DNA from: a virus | Lineage: Duplodnaviria; Caudoviricetes | Virus record (IMG/VR): IMGVR_UViG_3300029288_000111 | Span: 37,093-101,092 of that record | DNA length: 64,000 nucleotides | Strand: one strand, 5' to 3' | Program-made: the position numbers and the translations under genes | The notes under the pieces: model-generated | The model's input: only the letters and a program-made list of their open reading frames with translations | Database searches by the model: none | Told to the model about the DNA's origin: nothing | Part shown: in pieces, positions 3,723-39,027 of the stretch | How the letters are laid out: each line of letters starts with the position of its first letter | Numbering within the stretch: position 1 is the stretch's first letter

Positions 3723-4482
3723 GACGATCACCCCCGCGCCGGAGCCGGACGTCGAGGAACTCAACGCCGACCGCTGCCCGATGACGCTGCCCCTCTCCAT
3801 GTGGCAACTCCTCGCCAAACTGTCCTGGCCCGACGGCCTCTCGAAGCGCCTTCGCAAAGCGGTGGCCGAGGCGGACATCAAGGATGTCATGCTCACCCTC
3901 TGGCCGAACCCCGGGGAGTATTTCGTCCTCGCCCCGACGGCGTTCGCCCTCCTCAATACCGAGATCGACCGCCTGAAAGGGCACGCCGAGTCGGTGATCA
4001 CCGACCTGCGACTGCGGAGCCAGGAGGTCAAGGACGGCAAGTTCTGCCTGAATGTCGAAACCCGGCACGAGCTGATGACCGTCCTGGCTGCGAGTCTGGC
4101 GAACATCCTGTCATCAGCAGGCGCATCGAACTACGTCGAGTTCACGGTGGCGCACCCAGACTTCGGCCCGCTCACCCTCACCCTTCAGCGCCAGCAGGGC
4201 AAGACGCCTGGACAAGTCGCCGCCGAGGTGATCGCCGAGCGCGATGCCGCCCGCGCCGAGGTGAGTGCGGCTTGCTGCTTTAAGTTCGTCGGACCGGGCG
4301 GAAGGTGGGTGGCAAGTAGTATCCCGGACGGCAAGTGGATCTGTTACCGGAACGATGGGCCGCTCGCACTGCGGTTGCCGTGGACGGACCACGCCACCCA
4401 GGCCGAGGCCGTCGCCCATGCGCGCGCTGAGGCCGCTGTCTACGACGCCGCGCTGAAGGAGCAGGAGAACGCCAATGTCTGA
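3715..4482 (+). CDS. hypothetical protein
   Basis: ATG 3715 with AAAGGA RBS; high GC3. Confidence 0.7.
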   Translation: MPETITPAPEPDVEELNADRCPMTLPLSMWQLLAKLSWPDGLSKRLRKAVAEADIKDVMLTLWPNPGEYFVLAPTAFALLNTEIDRLKGHAESVITDLRLRSQEVKDGKFCLNVETRHELMTVLAASLANILSSAGASNYVEFTVAHPDFGPLTLTLQRQQGKTPGQVAAEVIAERDAARAEVSAACCFKFVGPGGRWVASSIPDGKWICYRNDGPLALRLPWTDHATQAEAVAHARAEAAVYDAALKEQENANV

Positions 4483-4672
4483 GACGCACTCCGTATACCG
4501 CGCCGGCCAGGAGCGCGAGCCACTCAAGGTGGGCGACCGCGTTCGCGTGGAGGGCGTCGTGACTAACATAGGACACTGGAGCGCGGCGATCCGCCTGGAG
4601 ACCGGCGATTTCGTTTTCATATCGCTACCTACCGCCAACCGCCTGCCGAAGATCCAGGAGGTGCAGGAATGA
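4475..4672 (+). CDS. hypothetical protein
   Basis: Translationally coupled ORF. Confidence 0.55.
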   Translation: MSETHSVYRAGQEREPLKVGDRVRVEGVVTNIGHWSAAIRLETGDFVFISLPTANRLPKIQEVQE

Positions 4673-6081
4673 CCACCGCGCAGGAGCGCCGGCATCCACA
4701 CACCCTGGGCAGCGGAGAAGGTCAGCAGGTGAGCTACCAGATCCTTCAGGGTGACTGCTGCGAGGTGCTGGTGGGCCTGCCGGACGGGCACTTCCAGACC
4801 TGCATTACGTCGCCGCCCTACTACAACCTGCGATCCTATAATGCGGGCGACCGCGAGATAGGGCAGGAGAGCACCCCGGAAGCCTATGTGGCGCGCCTGG
4901 TGACCGTGTTCGCCGAAGTGCGTCGGGTGCTGCACGATACCGGGGTACTGTGGGTCAATCTTGGCGATAGCTATGCGAACTGCGGCGGCCCCGAACCGGC
5001 GCTGCCAGCGGGCAACCTCCTTGGCATTCCCTGGCGGTTCGCCTTCGCGATGCAGCAGGACGGGTGGCTCTTGCGTTCGTCTGTGGTGTGGGCTAAGGCG
5101 GTGAGCTATAACCCTGGCTACAGCGGGTCGGTGATGCCCGAATCAGTAAGGGGGTGGATATGGGGACGGTGCCGGGTGAAGGCGGAGGGGCGCCCGTACC
5201 GGCAGCATCAAAGCGTTGCCGGGGAAACGTGGACAGGAGACGTATCGCGCAAGCTGACTGCCACGTACAGTGACTGCCCCGGATGCGAACGCTGCCTTCC
5301 CAACGGCGGCTACGTCCTTCGCCGGGGTTCCTGGCGGCCCACCAGCGCCCACGAGATGGTGTTCATGTTCACGAAGGGTGGTGATTACTTCTGCGACAGC
5401 ACGGCAGTGGCGGAGGTGGGAAGTGGGCGTGTACCAGGAAATGTGAAGCCACAGAAAGGTGTGGGGGATAAAGGATTTGAGATTCGCGGAGGGCTACTCG
5501 CTTCACAGCAGCAGCCACAGATGACCCGCAACCCACGGAACGTGTGGGATATACCCCTAGAAACCGACGTGCTGAAGCTGAGCCCGCGTGGGTCATCGCT
5601 TCCCCACTACGCTTTGTTCCCGCCCGACCTGGTACGCCCGATGATCCGGGCGGCAACCGGCGGCAGAGAACATCCGGGTGTGTGTAGCTCCTGCGGGATG
5701 CCGTGGAGCCCTGTAGTGGAAACACAGCGAGGGTTCCGCGTTGACCGCCCGGCGGTCAACGCGGAACAGACCGGACGTTCTGATGGGTTCACACCACCAC
5801 CTGCTTCCAAGGATATATACCAAAAGCACGTTTCATCCTACCGCCCATCCTGCCCCCACGCCGACGCCCCGGCGCGGCCGGCGCGCGTCCTAGACCCCTT
5901 CTCGGGCATGGGCACCACCTGCCTGGTGGCTATCCAGGAGGGTTGCGACGCCACCGGGATCGAGCTGAACACGGATTACGCCCGCATGTCCGAGGAGCGC
6001 ATAGATCGTGAGGGGGTGATCGGCCCCCGCGCCTACGACCGGCAGCAGGCCGGGCAGTTGCGACTCATGGAGGTAGGCTGA
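4669..6081 (+). CDS. site-specific DNA amino-methyltransferase (N4C/N6A, beta order) with Cys-rich insertions
   Basis: Catalytic TSPPY precedes SAM-binding VLDPFSGMGTT; GIELN; HYALFP. Confidence 0.92.
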   Translation: MTTAQERRHPHTLGSGEGQQVSYQILQGDCCEVLVGLPDGHFQTCITSPPYYNLRSYNAGDREIGQESTPEAYVARLVTVFAEVRRVLHDTGVLWVNLGDSYANCGGPEPALPAGNLLGIPWRFAFAMQQDGWLLRSSVVWAKAVSYNPGYSGSVMPESVRGWIWGRCRVKAEGRPYRQHQSVAGETWTGDVSRKLTATYSDCPGCERCLPNGGYVLRRGSWRPTSAHEMVFMFTKGGDYFCDSTAVAEVGSGRVPGNVKPQKGVGDKGFEIRGGLLASQQQPQMTRNPRNVWDIPLETDVLKLSPRGSSLPHYALFPPDLVRPMIRAATGGREHPGVCSSCGMPWSPVVETQRGFRVDRPAVNAEQTGRSDGFTPPPASKDIYQKHVSSYRPSCPHADAPARPARVLDPFSGMGTTCLVAIQEGCDATGIELNTDYARMSEERIDREGVIGPRAYDRQQAGQLRLMEVG

Positions 6082-23452: not shown

Positions 23453-23659
23453 CTACGCGGAGGCCTGAGATGTTCCCGCTCGGGCCTCCCGGCGTGCGGC
23501 AGCGATCTCCCGCTCGATCTCCTCGGGCGAGAGCCCGGAACGCCGTGCGTTCGCCCAGGCGCGTTCGACGATCTCCTGGAGGCCCTCCCACGCCTGTTCA
23601 CGCTCCCGTGGGAGAGAGTTTGATATCACAATCTGTGATTTCAAAACATCCTCTTTCAT
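23453..23659 (-). CDS. small hypothetical protein with palindrome-encoded LKSQIVISN motif
   Basis: GAGGGG RBS; helical 68 aa. Confidence 0.55.
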   Translation of the reverse strand: MKEDVLKSQIVISNSLPREREQAWEGLQEIVERAWANARRSGLSPEEIEREIAAARREARAGTSQASA

Positions 23660-23700
23660 GTTCGCCCCTCGCGTTCACCGGCTCCCGACGAACACTGTAC

Positions 23701-25089
23701 TCATACCCGTCCACCCGCTGCACGACGCGGATCTCCTTCTGGCTCCTCGGGCTGTAACTGCGCTTCGTGCCATCGGGATAGGAGACGATCCCCTTGCCCG
23801 CCCGTCGCCTCCAACCTGGAAACCCGCCCACACCGGCCCCGGAACAGCACCATATCGCCGGTGCCGAAGTGGAAGCGCCGCTTCCACCGCCTGGCCGTCA
23901 TCGGCAGGCCGTCCTTCCCCAGACGGGGAAAACCGGGAGCGCGATACCGCCGCAGTCCGCGGTCTCCATGCCCCTTGGCAGTCGCGAAGAGAACCCACAC
24001 CTCCCGCGCCCCTCGCTTGACCGACAGGAGCGGCGCCTCGCTCCAGGCATACGCCGAGCGACCGACACAAAGAGCATCCAGCGAATGTGTCTTCGCCAAG
24101 CGGAACTGATCCCGAACGAAGTGCGTCATCCCGCCCGAGCCGGTTTCCAGGGGCAAGCCCATGCGCCGGATCCGGGCACAGAGATCGGTCCGCGCCGAGT
24201 TTACCGCCGCCGCGTCTTTATACGACTTACCCACCTGCGCTTGCACATCGGGGTGCCCAAACTCTACCGCCGTCCGGTTCTTCTTGGCCTGGTTGCACGG
24301 TCCGCAGGCGATGGTGAGATTGCTCACCCGATTGGTTCCGTCCCTGCCTTTCGGAATGATGTGCTCCACCTGAAGCGGCCCCGGAAACTTCTTGTTGCAG
24401 TAGGAGCAGCGGTGGTGGAACTTGTAGAGAAGATACTGCTTCAACTCGTAGCCGGCGAGGGTGCCGCGTTGATACTCCATCCCCTTGATGTCCGGCTTCT
24501 CCATCTTCTGGGTGTCGAAGCGCACCGCCTCGACCGATATTCCCGTCACCGGCGCCCACCGGCACAACCGCTCAATCCACGAAACCTGCGAAAGGACCCG
24601 CGCCTTCACCGCCGGAGACAGCCAGCGCCCGCGCGTGTCCTCGCCGTTGTGCCGCACGCCCTTGTGGCGCCAGCACCAGTCCTTGCCACTTCTGGCGTTC
24701 TGCCCGCAGATGTGGCACTTCACGCGCGGGCGGTTCCTGAAGCGCCGGGGGCGGTAGCGGCGATACTTGTTGCGGCGCATCCGGCGCCAGTTCCGACGCT
24801 GCTGCATCTTCTTGTGAATGCCCCGGCGGTGCTCAATCTCCATCAGCGCCAGGGCGCGCGGTCGGTTCCCGCCTTCTCGGACGACGGCCAGTCCAGTTGC
24901 CTTCGATCCCGGATCCAGCTTCACCCGCACCGACTGCAACTCGCTCTCTTCCACCGTTCGGTCCGCCAACCGGATCACGAAGGGGGAGCGGCGGTGAACA
25001 CGCGCCCGGCCCCTCTCCAGGAGGAGTCGCGCCCGCTTCTCCGTGCAGGGCATCAGCGGATTCTGATGTTTGTCCAGAACGTAGACCAT
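23701..25089 (-). CDS. iscB: IscB RNA-guided endonuclease (C-terminus appears frameshifted)
   Basis: PLMP, RuvC-I LDPGS, Arg-rich bridge helix, RuvC-II VEAVRFD, HNH CSYC..EHIIP..GTN..NL..C..CN, RuvC-III HSLDA. Confidence 0.95.
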   Translation of the reverse strand: MVYVLDKHQNPLMPCTEKRARLLLERGRARVHRRSPFVIRLADRTVEESELQSVRVKLDPGSKATGLAVVREGGNRPRALALMEIEHRRGIHKKMQQRRNWRRMRRNKYRRYRPRRFRNRPRVKCHICGQNARSGKDWCWRHKGVRHNGEDTRGRWLSPAVKARVLSQVSWIERLCRWAPVTGISVEAVRFDTQKMEKPDIKGMEYQRGTLAGYELKQYLLYKFHHRCSYCNKKFPGPLQVEHIIPKGRDGTNRVSNLTIACGPCNQAKKNRTAVEFGHPDVQAQVGKSYKDAAAVNSARTDLCARIRRMGLPLETGSGGMTHFVRDQFRLAKTHSLDALCVGRSAYAWSEAPLLSVKRGAREVWVLFATAKGHGDRGLRRYRAPGFPRLGKDGLPMTARRWKRRFHFGTGDMVLFRGRCGRVSRLEATGGQGDRLLSRWHEAQLQPEEPEGDPRRAAGGRV

Positions 25090-25091
25090 CT

Positions 25092-25398
25092 TCTTGTCCT
25101 TACGGACCTTGTGACGGTGGCGGTTGGCATCCCGCCACGCTCACCACGCCCATGTCAACCGGCAGTCCGGCATTGAGCCATGTCGCGTTCCGTTTCGTGG
25201 CCTCTCAACCATTGTCTACAAGTACCTTTCGGTACGAACGCGACTTCGAGAGGGTCAGGCTGGTGAAGCACCGACCGTCGGTTTTAGACATCCGGCCAAC
25301 GTAGCTCACGGCCCGAAGGCCGCTTCAGCGGTTGTTACTCCCGCCTCCTCATCTGCCTTGCCATCGGCATCGGTGGCTCGGGCTAGTTCGCAGTTGAC
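25092..25398 (-). ncRNA. omegaRNA (HEARO-like) scaffold; 5' boundary uncertain
   Basis: Non-coding interval 5' of iscB with CTACGTT, TGCTTCACCAGC pairing to GGCGTGGTGAGC, GACATGG, GTCAAC at 25398, several hairpins. Confidence 0.85.
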
Positions 25399-25447
25399 AG
25401 ACTTTTCAGCCCGCGCGCTTCAACTCGGAATCCGCATCGCGCAAGGA

Positions 25448-25820
25448 GTCGCAACGGACTCCGAATAGAAGCGGAGAGTGCGACGTTCTGGCGGGATGCA
25501 CGCCCCGAAGATCCTCCGTCGCAACGGACTCCGAATAGAAGCGGAGAGTGCGACGTTTCACGCCGCCGCTCCGATCCTGACCGGGCGAGTCGCAACGGAC
25601 TCCGAATAGAAGCGGAGAGTGCGACCCTCGTTTCATGCCGATACCGGCAGGTGCCGGCTGTCGCAACGGACTCCGAATAGAAGCGGAGAGTGCGACTCGG
25701 CGCTGTGATCGTGCCGCCCCTCCTGCCGGCGTCGCAACGGACTCCGAATAGAATCGGAGAGTGCGACTCCCAACCGTTCTGGCGTCGCAACGGACTCCGA
25801 ATCGGAACGAAGAGTGCGAC
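25448..25820. CRISPR. CRISPR mini-array: 6 x 37-bp repeats, 5 spacers (33, 34, 34, 34, 16 bp)
   Basis: GTCGCAACGGACTCCGAATAGAAGCGGAGAGTGCGAC at 25448, 25518, 25589, 25660; variants at 25731 and 25784; unique spacers; no cas1/cas2/cas6 recognised in window. Confidence 0.95.
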
Positions 25821-25855
25821 TGACACTCACCGCCGTTATCCCCTTCCACCCTAGA

Positions 25856-25881
25856 TAACGCTCGATGGCCGCGAGCGTTCC
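25856..25881 (-). promoter_or_regulatory. ECF-type promoter pointing into CRISPR array and iscB
   Basis: GGAAC gctcgcggccatcgag CGTTATC. Confidence 0.8.
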
Positions 25882-25900
25882 CACTTTTTTTCAAGGCGTT

Positions 25901-25969
25901 TTGAGATGCCGATTTGGCACCTCAAAGGTGACAATCTGTTACCTTTGAGGTCACAATCTGTGACCTCAA
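25901..25969. repeat. three interlocked 25-27-bp palindromes (related copy at 23620-23644)
   Basis: TTGAGATGCC-GATTT-GGCACCTCAA; TCAAAGGTGAC-AATCT-GTTACCTTTGA; TTGAGGTCAC-AATCT-GTGACCTCAA. Confidence 0.8.
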
Positions 25970-26814: not shown

Positions 26815-27741
26815 CTAACGCTCCACTCGCCGAATCGTTCCCGCTCCCTTCGCCCGGGCCACCTTCCGCATCGCCATCGCGAAATCCCACGCCGCCATCG
26901 CCTTGACTTCCTCCTTGGTCCACGTATCGGGGTCCTTGGAGATGCACGCCGGCCGCGGCGGCACCGGCGGCAGCGGCGGCGGCAGCGCCTTTCGCAGGTG
27001 CATCTCCTCGCGGATCTCGGGGAGCTTGCGCAGCAGCAGATCGCGCGCCCGGAACAGCCGAGTGCGCACGGTCGCGGGCGAGACGCCGATCCTCTCGGCT
27101 GCCTCCGACGGCTCCAGCCCCTCCATCCACACCAGCCGTGCCGTCTGGCGGAACGGCTCCGGAAACGCGGAGACGGCCCGCATGATCGCCGTCATCATCT
27201 CACGGCTCACCACGTGCTGCTCGGGGGTCATCCCGGCCGCTGCCAGGATGTCACTCAGCACGCCCCCATCCTCGCCCCCGAGCGGCGCGTCGAGGCTCTC
27301 CAGGGATGGCTGCCGGTTCCGCTGTCTCCCCAAGTCGCGCCATTTGTTCCTCGCAATCGTGAACGTCCACGCGCGGAAGTTCCTCACTTCGGCATCCTCC
27401 TCGCTCTCATCCTCTTTCTGGCTGGCGAGCGGGTCGAACTGCTCCAGCCCGCCCCACGCCGCGGCGAGGGTATCCTGCACCAGGTCGGCGGCATCATCCT
27501 CGCTCAGGCCGTGCTTGCGCGCCCAGCCGAACAGTTCCTGTTCCACCGCCTCATGCCACTCCTCGAACCGCCGCGTGCGCTCCGCGTCGGAGACGTGCCG
27601 CCAGTAGCCCTCGGCACCCGGCTCGCGAGTCCATTGCCCGCCCTCCGCGCTGCCCTTCGGCACGCGCGGCTCCTCACGCCATCCCTTCAACAGCCGCGAC
27701 GCCAGGATGTCACACGCAATCGCCTTCGCCAATCGGCTCAT
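26815..27741 (-). CDS. ECF-type RNA polymerase sigma factor with N- and C-terminal extensions
   Basis: Region 2 DAADLVQDT..F..W.FTIARNKWRD; region 4 FRQTARL..EGL..EAAERIGVSPATVRTRLFRAR. Confidence 0.92.
   Translation of the reverse strand: MSRLAKAIACDILASRLLKGWREEPRVPKGSAEGGQWTREPGAEGYWRHVSDAERTRRFEEWHEAVEQELFGWARKHGLSEDDAADLVQDTLAAAWGGLEQFDPLASQKEDESEEDAEVRNFRAWTFTIARNKWRDLGRQRNRQPSLESLDAPLGGEDGGVLSDILAAAGMTPEQHVVSREMMTAIMRAVSAFPEPFRQTARLVWMEGLEPSEAAERIGVSPATVRTRLFRARDLLLRKLPEIREEMHLRKALPPPLPPVPPRPACISKDPDTWTKEEVKAMAAWDFAMAMRKVARAKGAGTIRRVER
26816..26841 (-). promoter_or_regulatory. ECF-type promoter overlapping the sigma gene stop codon
   Basis: GGAAC gattcggcgagtggag CGTTAGC. Confidence 0.75.
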
Positions 27742-31926: not shown

Positions 31927-31952
31927 GGAACGCTGGCGCGCGGCCGTCGTTA
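31927..31952 (+). promoter_or_regulatory. ECF-type promoter
   Basis: GGAAC gctggcgcgcggccgt CGTTATC. Confidence 0.82.
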
Positions 31953-37533: not shown

Positions 37534-39027
37534 TCAGGCCGACACGGCCGCCACACCGGTGCGGCGCAGGCGCCCGATGTTCTTCACGTAGATGTTCTTC
37601 TCCGGCTCGGTCATGATCGGCGTGTGAATGAGGATCAGCGCGAAGGGATCCACCATCATCCCCGGCGGCAGCACGCGCTTCATGACCGGGCAGTACTGCG
37701 CGACGTAGGTCTGGTTGTCATCCATCGAGAGCGCGCACCCCTGATAGGTGTCGGGCTCCCAATAGCGGTCGTCATAGAACGTGGTGGTAGCACCGGTCGT
37801 GGTGCGGGCGACGGAGCAGAGGTGGCGCCGGTTGCCCGCCACGCTGCCATCGTCCGTGACTTTGTTCCGGAAGATGTGGAAGTAGATCACGTTGGCGTCG
37901 TTGCAGGTGATCGTCAGCGTGATTCGCTGCCCTGCCGTCGCCGTGATCGCCGCCGAGGTGGCGGCGGTGCTCATGCCGCCACGGCTGACAGCGCACACGT
38001 CGTAGTAGTAGGTGCCGGCCACCAGGCCGCGCCGGCTGTCGGTGGCGGTGTGCGCCCCGCCCGAGCCGGTGACACTCGTCGGTGCTGGCGGACTGTTCGG
38101 ACCTCCCACCAGGGGCGCCACGCGCGGCATCCCCATCGAAACGCCGGGGCGCAGCATGTGCACCCCCTTGACCTTCAGGTACTCGGGGTCGCCATCGAGA
38201 CTGGCCACGACGATCTCCCGGAACATCGCGCCCAACTGCCCCGCCCGCAGGTTCTCGTCCGCACGCTGCTCGGGGAACAGACTGCGCTGCAGATCGTTGA
38301 TCGCCCCGAACGGCAGGTAGACCCGCGACAGGTCGCAGTTGTTCTGCTCGGCGATGTCGGCCAGTACGGTGAGGCTCTCCTTGTCGAGCGGCGCGTTGCG
38401 CATATCCCACATGATGTTGTTGTCGGCCGTCGCCGCCGCCTCGATCTGGCAGAAGTAGCCATCGTGCTGAAGGCTGCTCACGGCGCTGCGGTCGAAGAAG
38501 AGACTGCGCTCGCAGTGGATGAGGAGTTCGCGCATCTTGAGCTGCTCCAACGTCTGCGTGATGTTCCGGCCGACGCCGTTGAACCCCACGCTGCGCTGAA
38601 GCTGCGCGATCAACTCCGCCTCCGCCTTGACGTACTTCGCCTTGACCGACTTTCCGGCACGCCGGAAGGTCGGGTCACTCACCACCCCCACGTCGGAGAA
38701 CCCGGCGGAGCCATCCATGCCGTAGGCGCCGAACCCGGTGTGCACGGCATACTCCACCATGATAGAGCCAGTCGGAATCTTCGTCACGTCGCGCCACGCC
38801 ACGAGCTGGCGCTGCTTCACCTCGACGCTACGCAGAGTGCCGTCGAGGTACTCCACGCCCAGTTGGGTAGCGCTGGTGGCGCCCCCCGCCGTGGTGCGCG
38901 GGATGGTGGAATCGGCAGTGATAGCCTTGCGCACCTCTTCCGTGATCAGGTTCACCTCGTTATCGAGATCGGAGCCGCCGCCATTCGGGAAGAAGGCATC
39001 CGGCCCCAGCACACTTGCGAACTCCAT
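37534..39027 (-). CDS. major capsid protein (SPO1/Twort-like, with Ig/FN3-like insertion)
   Basis: VRKAIT..L.VEYLD.TL, ERSLFF..Q.DG, DMRN, GTYYY.V.AV; follows protease and scaffold. Confidence 0.85.
   Translation of the reverse strand: MEFASVLGPDAFFPNGGGSDLDNEVNLITEEVRKAITADSTIPRTTAGGATSATQLGVEYLDGTLRSVEVKQRQLVAWRDVTKIPTGSIMVEYAVHTGFGAYGMDGSAGFSDVGVVSDPTFRRAGKSVKAKYVKAEAELIAQLQRSVGFNGVGRNITQTLEQLKMRELLIHCERSLFFDRSAVSSLQHDGYFCQIEAAATADNNIMWDMRNAPLDKESLTVLADIAEQNNCDLSRVYLPFGAINDLQRSLFPEQRADENLRAGQLGAMFREIVVASLDGDPEYLKVKGVHMLRPGVSMGMPRVAPLVGGPNSPPAPTSVTGSGGAHTATDSRRGLVAGTYYYDVCAVSRGGMSTAATSAAITATAGQRITLTITCNDANVIYFHIFRNKVTDDGSVAGNRRHLCSVARTTTGATTTFYDDRYWEPDTYQGCALSMDDNQTYVAQYCPVMKRVLPPGMMVDPFALILIHTPIMTEPEKNIYVKNIGRLRRTGVAAVSA

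Follow-up and report, generated by a model that had tools for sequence, protein, structure and literature searches.

The minus strand of the DNA considered here carries a promoter, a short CRISPR array, an omegaRNA and an iscB gene, in that order and in one orientation. This DNA is a 64,000-nucleotide stretch, which we call the window, and makes up the right-hand 64 kb of the linear, 101,092-bp IMG/VR virus record IMGVR_UViG_3300029288_000111, whose completeness is given by CheckV as 72%. An earlier note on the window had read the four parts as a single multi-guide unit in which several spacers provide guides for the IscB protein, and all of its coordinates are correct, each part lying where it had been placed (Table 1). 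The question addressed below is how well this reading, and its competitors, agree with a closer computational analysis of the locus and of related loci.

Table 1. Features of the CRISPR-IscB locus, listed in the direction of the minus strand; positions count from the first letter of the window (ORF, open reading frame)
Feature	Position	Strand	Sequence	Remarks
Extracytoplasmic function (ECF) sigma factor gene	26815-27741	-		TIGR02937 at 67.8 bits (cut-off 42.9); 1 kb upstream of the promoter
Palindrome, first copy	25945..25969	-	TTGAGGTCACAGATTGTGACCTCAA	Upstream of the promoter; a second hairpin overlaps it at 25920-25950
ECF-type phage promoter	25856..25881	-	GGAACGCTCGCGGCCATCGAGCGTTA	-35 GGAAC, 16-nt spacer, -10 CGTTA; points into the array
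Transcribed leader, 35 nt	25821..25855	-	begins TCTAGGGTGGA	First 11 nt identical to the 5' untranslated region behind the promoter at 31927-31952
CRISPR array	25448..25820	-	GTCGCACTCTCCGCTTCTATTCGGAGTCCGTTGCGAC (repeat)	Six 37-nt repeats; spacers of 16, 34, 34, 34 and 33 nt in minus-strand order
Loop between last repeat and anti-repeat, 13 nt	25435..25447	-
Anti-repeat	25416..25434	-	CGGATTCCGAGTTGAAGCG	Complementary to repeat nt 12-30 (Watson-Crick at 16/19, the remainder mostly G-U)
GAAA-loop hairpin	25397..25414	-		Inserted between the two anti-repeat halves; arrangement as in locus L038
Closing strand of the first omegaRNA stem	25386..25392	-	UGCGA(AC)	UGCGA (25392-25388) pairs with the repeat 5' end (G)UCGCA, by cofolding and the HEARO alignment; directly before the conserved UAGCC core
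omegaRNA core, HEARO-like scaffold	25095..25385	-	ends CGUCACAAGGUCCGUAAGGAC	Conserved end lies just before the iscB start
iscB ORF as assembled, 462 aa	23701..25089	-		RRXRR/RuvC, CxxC..CxxH insert (aa 124-141), HNH
GGGG run	23790..23793	-	GGGG	Likeliest +1 shift site; one extra base relative to homologues
+1-frame continuation	23598..23789	-	..IVSYPDG..IRVVQRVDGYEYSV..	Conserved IscB C-terminus; open to the stop at 23598
Palindrome, second copy	23619..23645	-	TTTGAAATCACAGATTGTGATATCAAA	Just past iscB, inside the start of the 68-aa ORF
68-aa ORF	23453-23659	-	MKEDVLKSQIVISN...LSPEEIEREIAAARREAR...	Directly after iscB

The gene at the end of the unit encodes an IscB, as had been claimed. Its product matches the Pfam families RRXRR (PF14239, E=5.8e-56) and HNH (PF01844, at aa 228-272), reaches 351 bits with the NCBIfam model NF040563 (guided_IscB, cut-off 175), and also matches IscB structures in the PDB. 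In an alignment of 30 sequences (A2), the catalytic residues D59, E187, H243, N266 and D338 fall in invariant or near-invariant columns, and the closest proteins found are approximately 49-51% identical. The zinc-finger insert to which the earlier note had drawn attention (CHIC..CWRH, after the bridge helix) is real but is not special to this protein, being present in about 10% of relatives. Because these include the array-less L007/P0002 and L008/P0004 as well as the solved TbaIscB (9k30), we regard the insert as a clade trait rather than a feature of this system, and the zinc finger was rejected as a mark of CRISPR association.

The array is upstream of iscB in the same orientation, 358 nt separating it from the start codon, and its six repeats are those that had been reported. 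Five of the six are identical or differ by 1 nt, and the promoter-proximal copy is degenerate, with four changes, and is followed by a spacer of only 16 nt, which is the guide length of the CRISPR-associated IscB known as DelIscB (PMC12660989). Some resemblances among the spacers can be seen. The end of spacer 5 (25485-25517) and the start of the 16-nt spacer 1 (25768-25783) share GCCAGAAC, such that the two joined form one 41-nt sequence, and spacers 3 and 4 (25555-25659) share CGGC[A/G]TGAAAC; each likeness has p ~0.01 uncorrected and is marginal across the 15 comparisons made.

Transcription of the array on the minus strand, the strand of iscB, is supported by its promoter. The motif GGAAC-N16-CGTTA has the form of an ECF-sigma promoter, and it occurs in 13 exact copies in the window when 0.14 would be expected (18 copies in the 101-kb record), with a spacer of 16 nt in every copy. 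All copies other than the one before the array are followed within ~20-30 nt by a ribosome-binding site and an ATG start codon. The promoter points into the array, and the view that a phage promoter heads the minus-strand unit is thus upheld. Because the leader opens with the same 11 nt as the untranslated region behind another copy of this promoter (Table 1), the cassette has been fitted with the phage's own promoter module. Two further peculiarities of the array promoter can be recorded. The GATTCCG that usually lies upstream in this promoter family is replaced by AAAAAAAGTG, and the promoter spacer is formed by an 8-bp dyad, AACGCTCG/CGAGCGTT, which together with an upstream A-run yields, on the plus strand (25857-25890), a terminator-like hairpin followed by a T-run.

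An interval of 62 nt separates the last repeat from the omegaRNA core. The earlier note had seen here a gap of about 49 nt, and its position was right, but the gap is not empty: it holds an anti-repeat and a hairpin, and hence is part of the omegaRNA. The transcript at 25434-25416 reads CGGAUUCCGAGUUGAAGCG, in which 16 of 19 bases agree with the reverse complement of repeat positions 12-30, and the corresponding local score of 23 is equalled in 2 of 5000 shuffles and in none of 3168 windows taken from the phage genome. The predicted duplex of repeat and anti-repeat has an energy of -43.4 kcal/mol, compared with -23.8 +/- 3.9 kcal/mol for shuffled sequences, and the pairing is kept in both the minimum free energy and the centroid folds of the 419-nt transcript that extends from the last spacer through the omegaRNA (z = -4.3). 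The Rfam HEARO alignment begins at the conserved UAGCC core, immediately after the bases that pair with the repeat 5' end. Thus, the first omegaRNA stem is split, with the repeat as its 5' arm and the supposed gap as its 3' arm, and therefore each spacer abuts the scaffold at the position that a guide occupies in an omegaRNA. The noncoding RNA (ncRNA) of DelIscB, a protein of 457 aa that uses a 16-nt guide, also consists of spacer, repeat and anti-repeat (PMC12660989).

Two other accounts of this interval were considered and set aside. That the anti-repeat is merely a degenerate direct repeat is at odds with its score in the direct orientation, which is 14 and is equalled by 683 of 5000 shuffles, as opposed to the 2 of 5000 that equal the reverse-complement score. 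The 49-nt gap was likewise rejected as a final spacer or native guide, the region being the anti-repeat.

The candidate omegaRNA between array and gene, which had also been proposed before, is divergent. The Rfam HEARO model matches 25134-25398(-) over its full length but weakly (25 bits, E=0.027, gathering score 83), and the identification is backed by alignment of the region with the omegaRNA at L007, the sister IscB locus (nhmmer E=7e-30), core motifs being common to an alignment with L007, L008 and L009. The L007 omegaRNA has no HEARO hit, and other relatives score 61-150 bits. Given that neither this locus nor L007 passes HEARO, we conclude that the two have a divergent omegaRNA scaffold. 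The sister relationship is well supported (SH-aLRT 99), and the 156 nt available upstream of the L007 unit contain no array; at the homologous place there is an ordinary hairpin formed within the transcript. The contrast between this hairpin and the repeat plus anti-repeat of the phage locus offers a concrete view of how a split guide RNA can arise.

Loci of the same design recur among other IscBs. In a wider survey that sampled 80 metagenome and 79 IMG/VR IscB loci, arrays lie directly 5' of the omegaRNA in three of the former (L019, L087 and L038) and four of the latter (L117, L143, L166 and L170), and arrays 3' of iscB were seen in 7 more of the IMG/VR loci. The repeats of the seven loci are unrelated in sequence, and each is accompanied by its own matching anti-repeat or closing stem. 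The anti-repeat of L170 matches at 20 of 21 positions (equalled by 0 of 300 shuffles) and that of L143 at 15 of 17 (1 of 300). In L038 the anti-repeat is split, as in the phage locus, by a GAAA hairpin. When 8 loci are compared, the pairing between the repeat 5' end and the bases that precede the core has a mean length of 6.4 bp in cognate combinations and 3.6 bp in non-cognate ones. Nothing else argues as strongly for arrays in the service of IscB as this covariation at the level of whole systems.

The array-bearing loci are scattered on the IscB tree, requiring four changes and showing no clustering, in agreement with the published view that the association of IscB with CRISPR evolved several times independently (PMC10734277). 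Carriage by phages is not unique to the record studied here, because PHROGs matches place two of the IMG/VR CRISPR-IscB loci on contigs that encode either a large terminase (E=2e-116) or a phage DNA polymerase, a helicase and UvsX. A search of five other CRISPR-IscB contigs for Pfam phage hallmarks (HK97 capsid, TerL ATPase) found nothing.

The survey also brought to light several arrangements that depart from this layout. In L087 (54-824) and L019 (237-701) the array repeats measure 28-30 nt and recur every 61 nt, a size like that of type I-E, and the last of them is the first hairpin of the HEARO match; L087 has a second full HEARO copy upstream of its array. Gene order differs from that of the studied locus in L160-L165 (about 4386-5730) and L099 (1770-2231), where arrays of 8-19 repeats begin ~280-360 nt downstream of iscB and the HEARO RNA lies upstream of the gene. 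L134 (1980-2980 and 4516-4678) has irregular tandem repeats of ~31-46 nt, with spacings of 40-75 nt, around two HEARO copies beside iscB, and these are unlike a regular CRISPR array. Approximately 2 kb upstream of the CRISPR-IscB unit of L170, a match to the c4-2 antisense RNA (1027-1093) reaches 37.7 bits, the gathering score being 41.

Taken together, these observations make it probable that the locus is a phage-encoded CRISPR-associated IscB: a nuclease of the Cas9-ancestor type, no longer part of a transposon, whose guide RNAs come from a small array lacking adaptation functions. The earlier reading of promoter, array, omegaRNA and IscB as one multi-guide unit on the minus strand is borne out by the direction of the promoter, the anti-repeat, the geometry of the spacers and the recurrence of the design in other loci. 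The absence of adaptation genes and of tnpA that it had remarked on extends beyond the window, given that no Cas1, Cas2, Cas6, Y1 transposase/TnpA or RNase III was found in a search of the whole 101-kb record, which is 72% of a genome by the CheckV estimate. CRISPR-associated IscBs were reportedly described by Altae-Tran et al. 2021, Science 374:57. The present system adds to this published class a new member that is of independent derivation and has a recurrent setting, that of a phage.

How such a unit might operate can be outlined. A single sigma-dependent transcript would comprise the array, the anti-repeat with the omegaRNA, and the iscB mRNA. The last repeat can fold onto the anti-repeat in the same transcript, which gives a complete omegaRNA with the last spacer as its guide, and the earlier repeat-spacer units might share this anti-repeat by pairing with it in trans or through alternative folds of the transcript. 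The resulting duplexes may be trimmed by host RNases, by analogy with Cas9 RNase III. IscB could then receive as many as five or six guides, each different and ~16 nt long, derived from the 3' ends of the spacers, and the ribonucleoprotein would cut matching DNA beside a target-adjacent motif (TAM), probably in competing mobile elements or in the host.

Several points weigh against this interpretation. One promoter and one anti-repeat per transcript leave the loading of all but the last spacer unexplained, a gap that has also been stated for DelIscB (PMC12660989). The plus strand has the terminator-like hairpin with its T-run (25857-25879), the HEARO score is only 25 bits, and the iscB frame breaks near 23790-23793. 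The degenerate repeat is the one nearest the promoter, an unusual place for it if acquisition is leader-proximal. Furthermore, searches with 22-mers from the 3' ends of spacers 2-5 against IMG/VR, blastn of the array against INPHARED and PLSDB, and scans of the phage genome both with mismatches and by blastn-short produced no protospacer, the partial matches in INPHARED and PLSDB having E values of at least 0.1. Because the spacers match neither their own phage, cultured phages, plasmids nor IMG/VR, the targets, the TAM and the biological role are all matters of inference. Of the proposal that the spacers feed IscB under phage control against competitors or the host, the multi-guide unit under a phage promoter therefore stands, but no target was found to support the part that names the victims, and the comparison of spacers with viral databases that had been recommended came out negative.

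The break in iscB deserves separate consideration, and it leaves the view of an intact gene unsupported. Similarity to the homologue P0002 stops at aa 425, and a single-base frameshift ~39 codons before the stop puts the last ~45 conserved residues out of frame. In the +1 frame, VVQRVDGYEYSV corresponds to VVQRADGYMYEV at P0002 450-461 in 9 of 12 positions. The displaced sequence includes the C-terminal VQRVDGYEY motif (..QR.DGY.Y), whose Q and G are near-invariant in alignment A2 and are missing from the assembled frame, and as assembled the C-terminal TAM-interacting domain is without its last strands. It is conceivable, although in our estimation unlikely, that the locus is a decaying relic in which a once CRISPR-guided IscB has been inactivated by a real frameshift, with the array and omegaRNA disused and drifting. 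The loss of the conserved motif from the frame would be expected of such a relic, as would a first repeat with four changes followed by a 16-nt spacer and the failure to find spacer targets. Long reading frames of 2525 and 2577 codons on the same contig are unbroken, and because of this, random or frequent assembly error is not the likeliest cause of the shift. However, the +1 frame is open for 77 codons and preserves the conserved motif, from which it follows that the break either arose very recently or represents a minority variant or an error. Five repeats of six that are identical or nearly so, and the intact state of the anti-repeat, the catalytic residues and the promoter, also count against the relic view. 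We continue to favour a CRISPR-guided IscB over its remnant.

A second alternative, which is compatible with the multi-guide interpretation, concerns what the guides are for. Transposon IscB and TnpB nucleases and phage homing endonucleases copy themselves in through the cutting of empty alleles, and the cassette could in the same way be a homing or retention device whose guides direct cutting of cassette-less alleles in related phages or of the empty site, so that recombination copies the cassette in. Cutting of the empty donor site is the ancestral role of the IscB omegaRNA (PMC10734277; PMC13565253). The palindrome core TCACAGATTGTGA also occurs in only two copies in the 101-kb record, and these bracket the whole promoter-array-omegaRNA-iscB unit. 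The palindromes could be cassette ends, hairpins like those of IS200/IS605 elements, or operator sites; their stems differ by partly compensatory changes (GG:CC versus AA:TA). We nonetheless judge the homing role improbable, more so than the relic, given that no spacer resembles the cassette flanks or any other part of the phage, that five different spacers exceed what a single homing site would need, and that no related phage was found to reveal an empty site, the neighbouring 944-aa protein having no relative in IMG/VR.

The small reading frame that follows iscB overlaps one of these palindromes. Its 68-aa product has no match in Pfam, PHROG or NCBIfam. The region of the upstream palindrome would read RSQIVTS where the 68-aa ORF has KSQIVIS.

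The remaining alternative, which the earlier note had itself put forward, is that the array is a class 1 mini-array transcribed from the plus strand, cut by host Cas6 at the CTCCG/CGGAG hairpin to leave an AGTGCGAC handle, and feeding a host class 1 effector, with IscB merely adjacent. We give it very little credence: the plus-strand repeat does have the hairpin and an 8-nt tail, its degenerate copy would then be distal, and the terminator-like hairpin with T-run would follow the array, but the repeat has no Rfam CRISPR-DR match, there is no Cas6 in the record, no rightward promoter of the phage type leads into the array even when two mismatches are permitted, the anti-repeat and its position go unexplained, and the layout from array to IscB recurs with other repeats. 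Nor did the repeat turn up in a host array beside class 1 cas genes: no array containing it was recovered from IMG/VR or from 185,579 species genomes when its loop was left free, or from the genomes and JGI metagenomes when only stem and handle were specified around a variable loop, although absence from the true host is not proven. The five genome hits were isolated chance matches within coding regions of Pseudonocardia, Mycolicibacterium and an Actinomycetota metagenome-assembled genome.

That the CRISPR-IscB unit resides in a phage is established by the rest of the record. The major head protein (37534-39027, minus strand) matches phrog_752 with E=5e-38, and tail-fibre-like proteins, a DNA methyltransferase and the ECF sigma factor are also encoded. 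Only two homologues of the major head protein (53% and 28% identity) turned up in a set of 5.8 billion clustered proteins, and the phage lineage is, to judge from its sequences, very isolated and almost unsampled.

CRISPR-associated IscBs are regarded as intermediates between the transposon-borne OMEGA nucleases and Cas9, and few have been described. The present locus adds a clear example that belongs to a separate IscB lineage, is carried by a well-supported phage genome and is headed by a phage promoter that can be identified. Viewed alongside the other phage contigs, it suggests that CRISPR-IscB systems regularly reside in phages, which is of relevance to conflicts among phages and between phages and hosts, as well as to efforts to find compact genome editors. 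Because of the frameshift, and because no targets are known, what this single copy can teach is limited. We tentatively entertain a broader possibility, namely that the conversion of transposon IscB-omegaRNA units into CRISPR-like weapons with several guides and no adaptation module has happened in phages repeatedly and independently, through splitting of the first stem and adoption of the unit into the phage's own transcription programme (an ECF-sigma regulon in this case). If true, such loci would be living intermediates of the transition from IscB to Cas9 that arise in phage genomes rather than in the defence islands of cells.

It remains to place the system among those already known. With type II CRISPR-Cas9 it shares a dual-RNA logic in which a duplex of repeat and anti-repeat lies beside the guide, an HNH domain within RuvC, and an array and tracr-like RNA that adjoin the effector gene. 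Unlike Cas9, the protein has no recognition (REC) lobe, scoring 22 bits with TIGR01865 (cut-off 100) and 36 bits with the Cas9d model (cut-off 375). There is no cas1, cas2 or csn2, and the anti-repeat is fused to a large omegaRNA that is co-transcribed with the array.

Resemblance is also seen to the IscB-omegaRNA systems of transposons (OMEGA, IS200/IS605; OgeuIscB, PDB 7xht/7utn; HEARO, RF02033), which have the same protein family and catalytic residues, what is probably the same omegaRNA core directly before the gene, and a guide 5' of the scaffold. In the phage locus, by contrast, the record holds no TnpA, a CRISPR repeat rather than a transposon end occupies the junction of guide and scaffold, the first stem is split into repeat and anti-repeat, the putative guides are several rather than one, and the promoter is that of a phage.

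The published CRISPR-associated IscBs, too, have an effector of IscB size (462 aa here and 457 aa for DelIscB) with no REC lobe and no cas1/cas2, an array directly upstream in the same orientation, and an ncRNA that joins spacer, repeat and anti-repeat to an omegaRNA scaffold. What sets the present system apart is its residence in a phage of 101 kb that encodes head and tail proteins, its phage ECF-sigma promoter, an iscB that is frameshifted in the assembly, and its separate IscB lineage, which is sister to the array-less L007 and has a best database identity of ~49-51%.

Finally, the IMG/VR loci L143, L166, L170 and L117 have repeats of 36-37 nt with a period of ~70-77 nt, followed by anti-repeat, HEARO RNA and iscB, and in these, as here, the GU.. 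at the repeat 5' end pairs with ..AC just before the core. Their repeats are unrelated to the one described here, their IscBs are 38-41% identical to this one, and their HEARO scores are 61-129 bits rather than 25. The present locus further differs from them in its high-GC host background and its ECF promoter.

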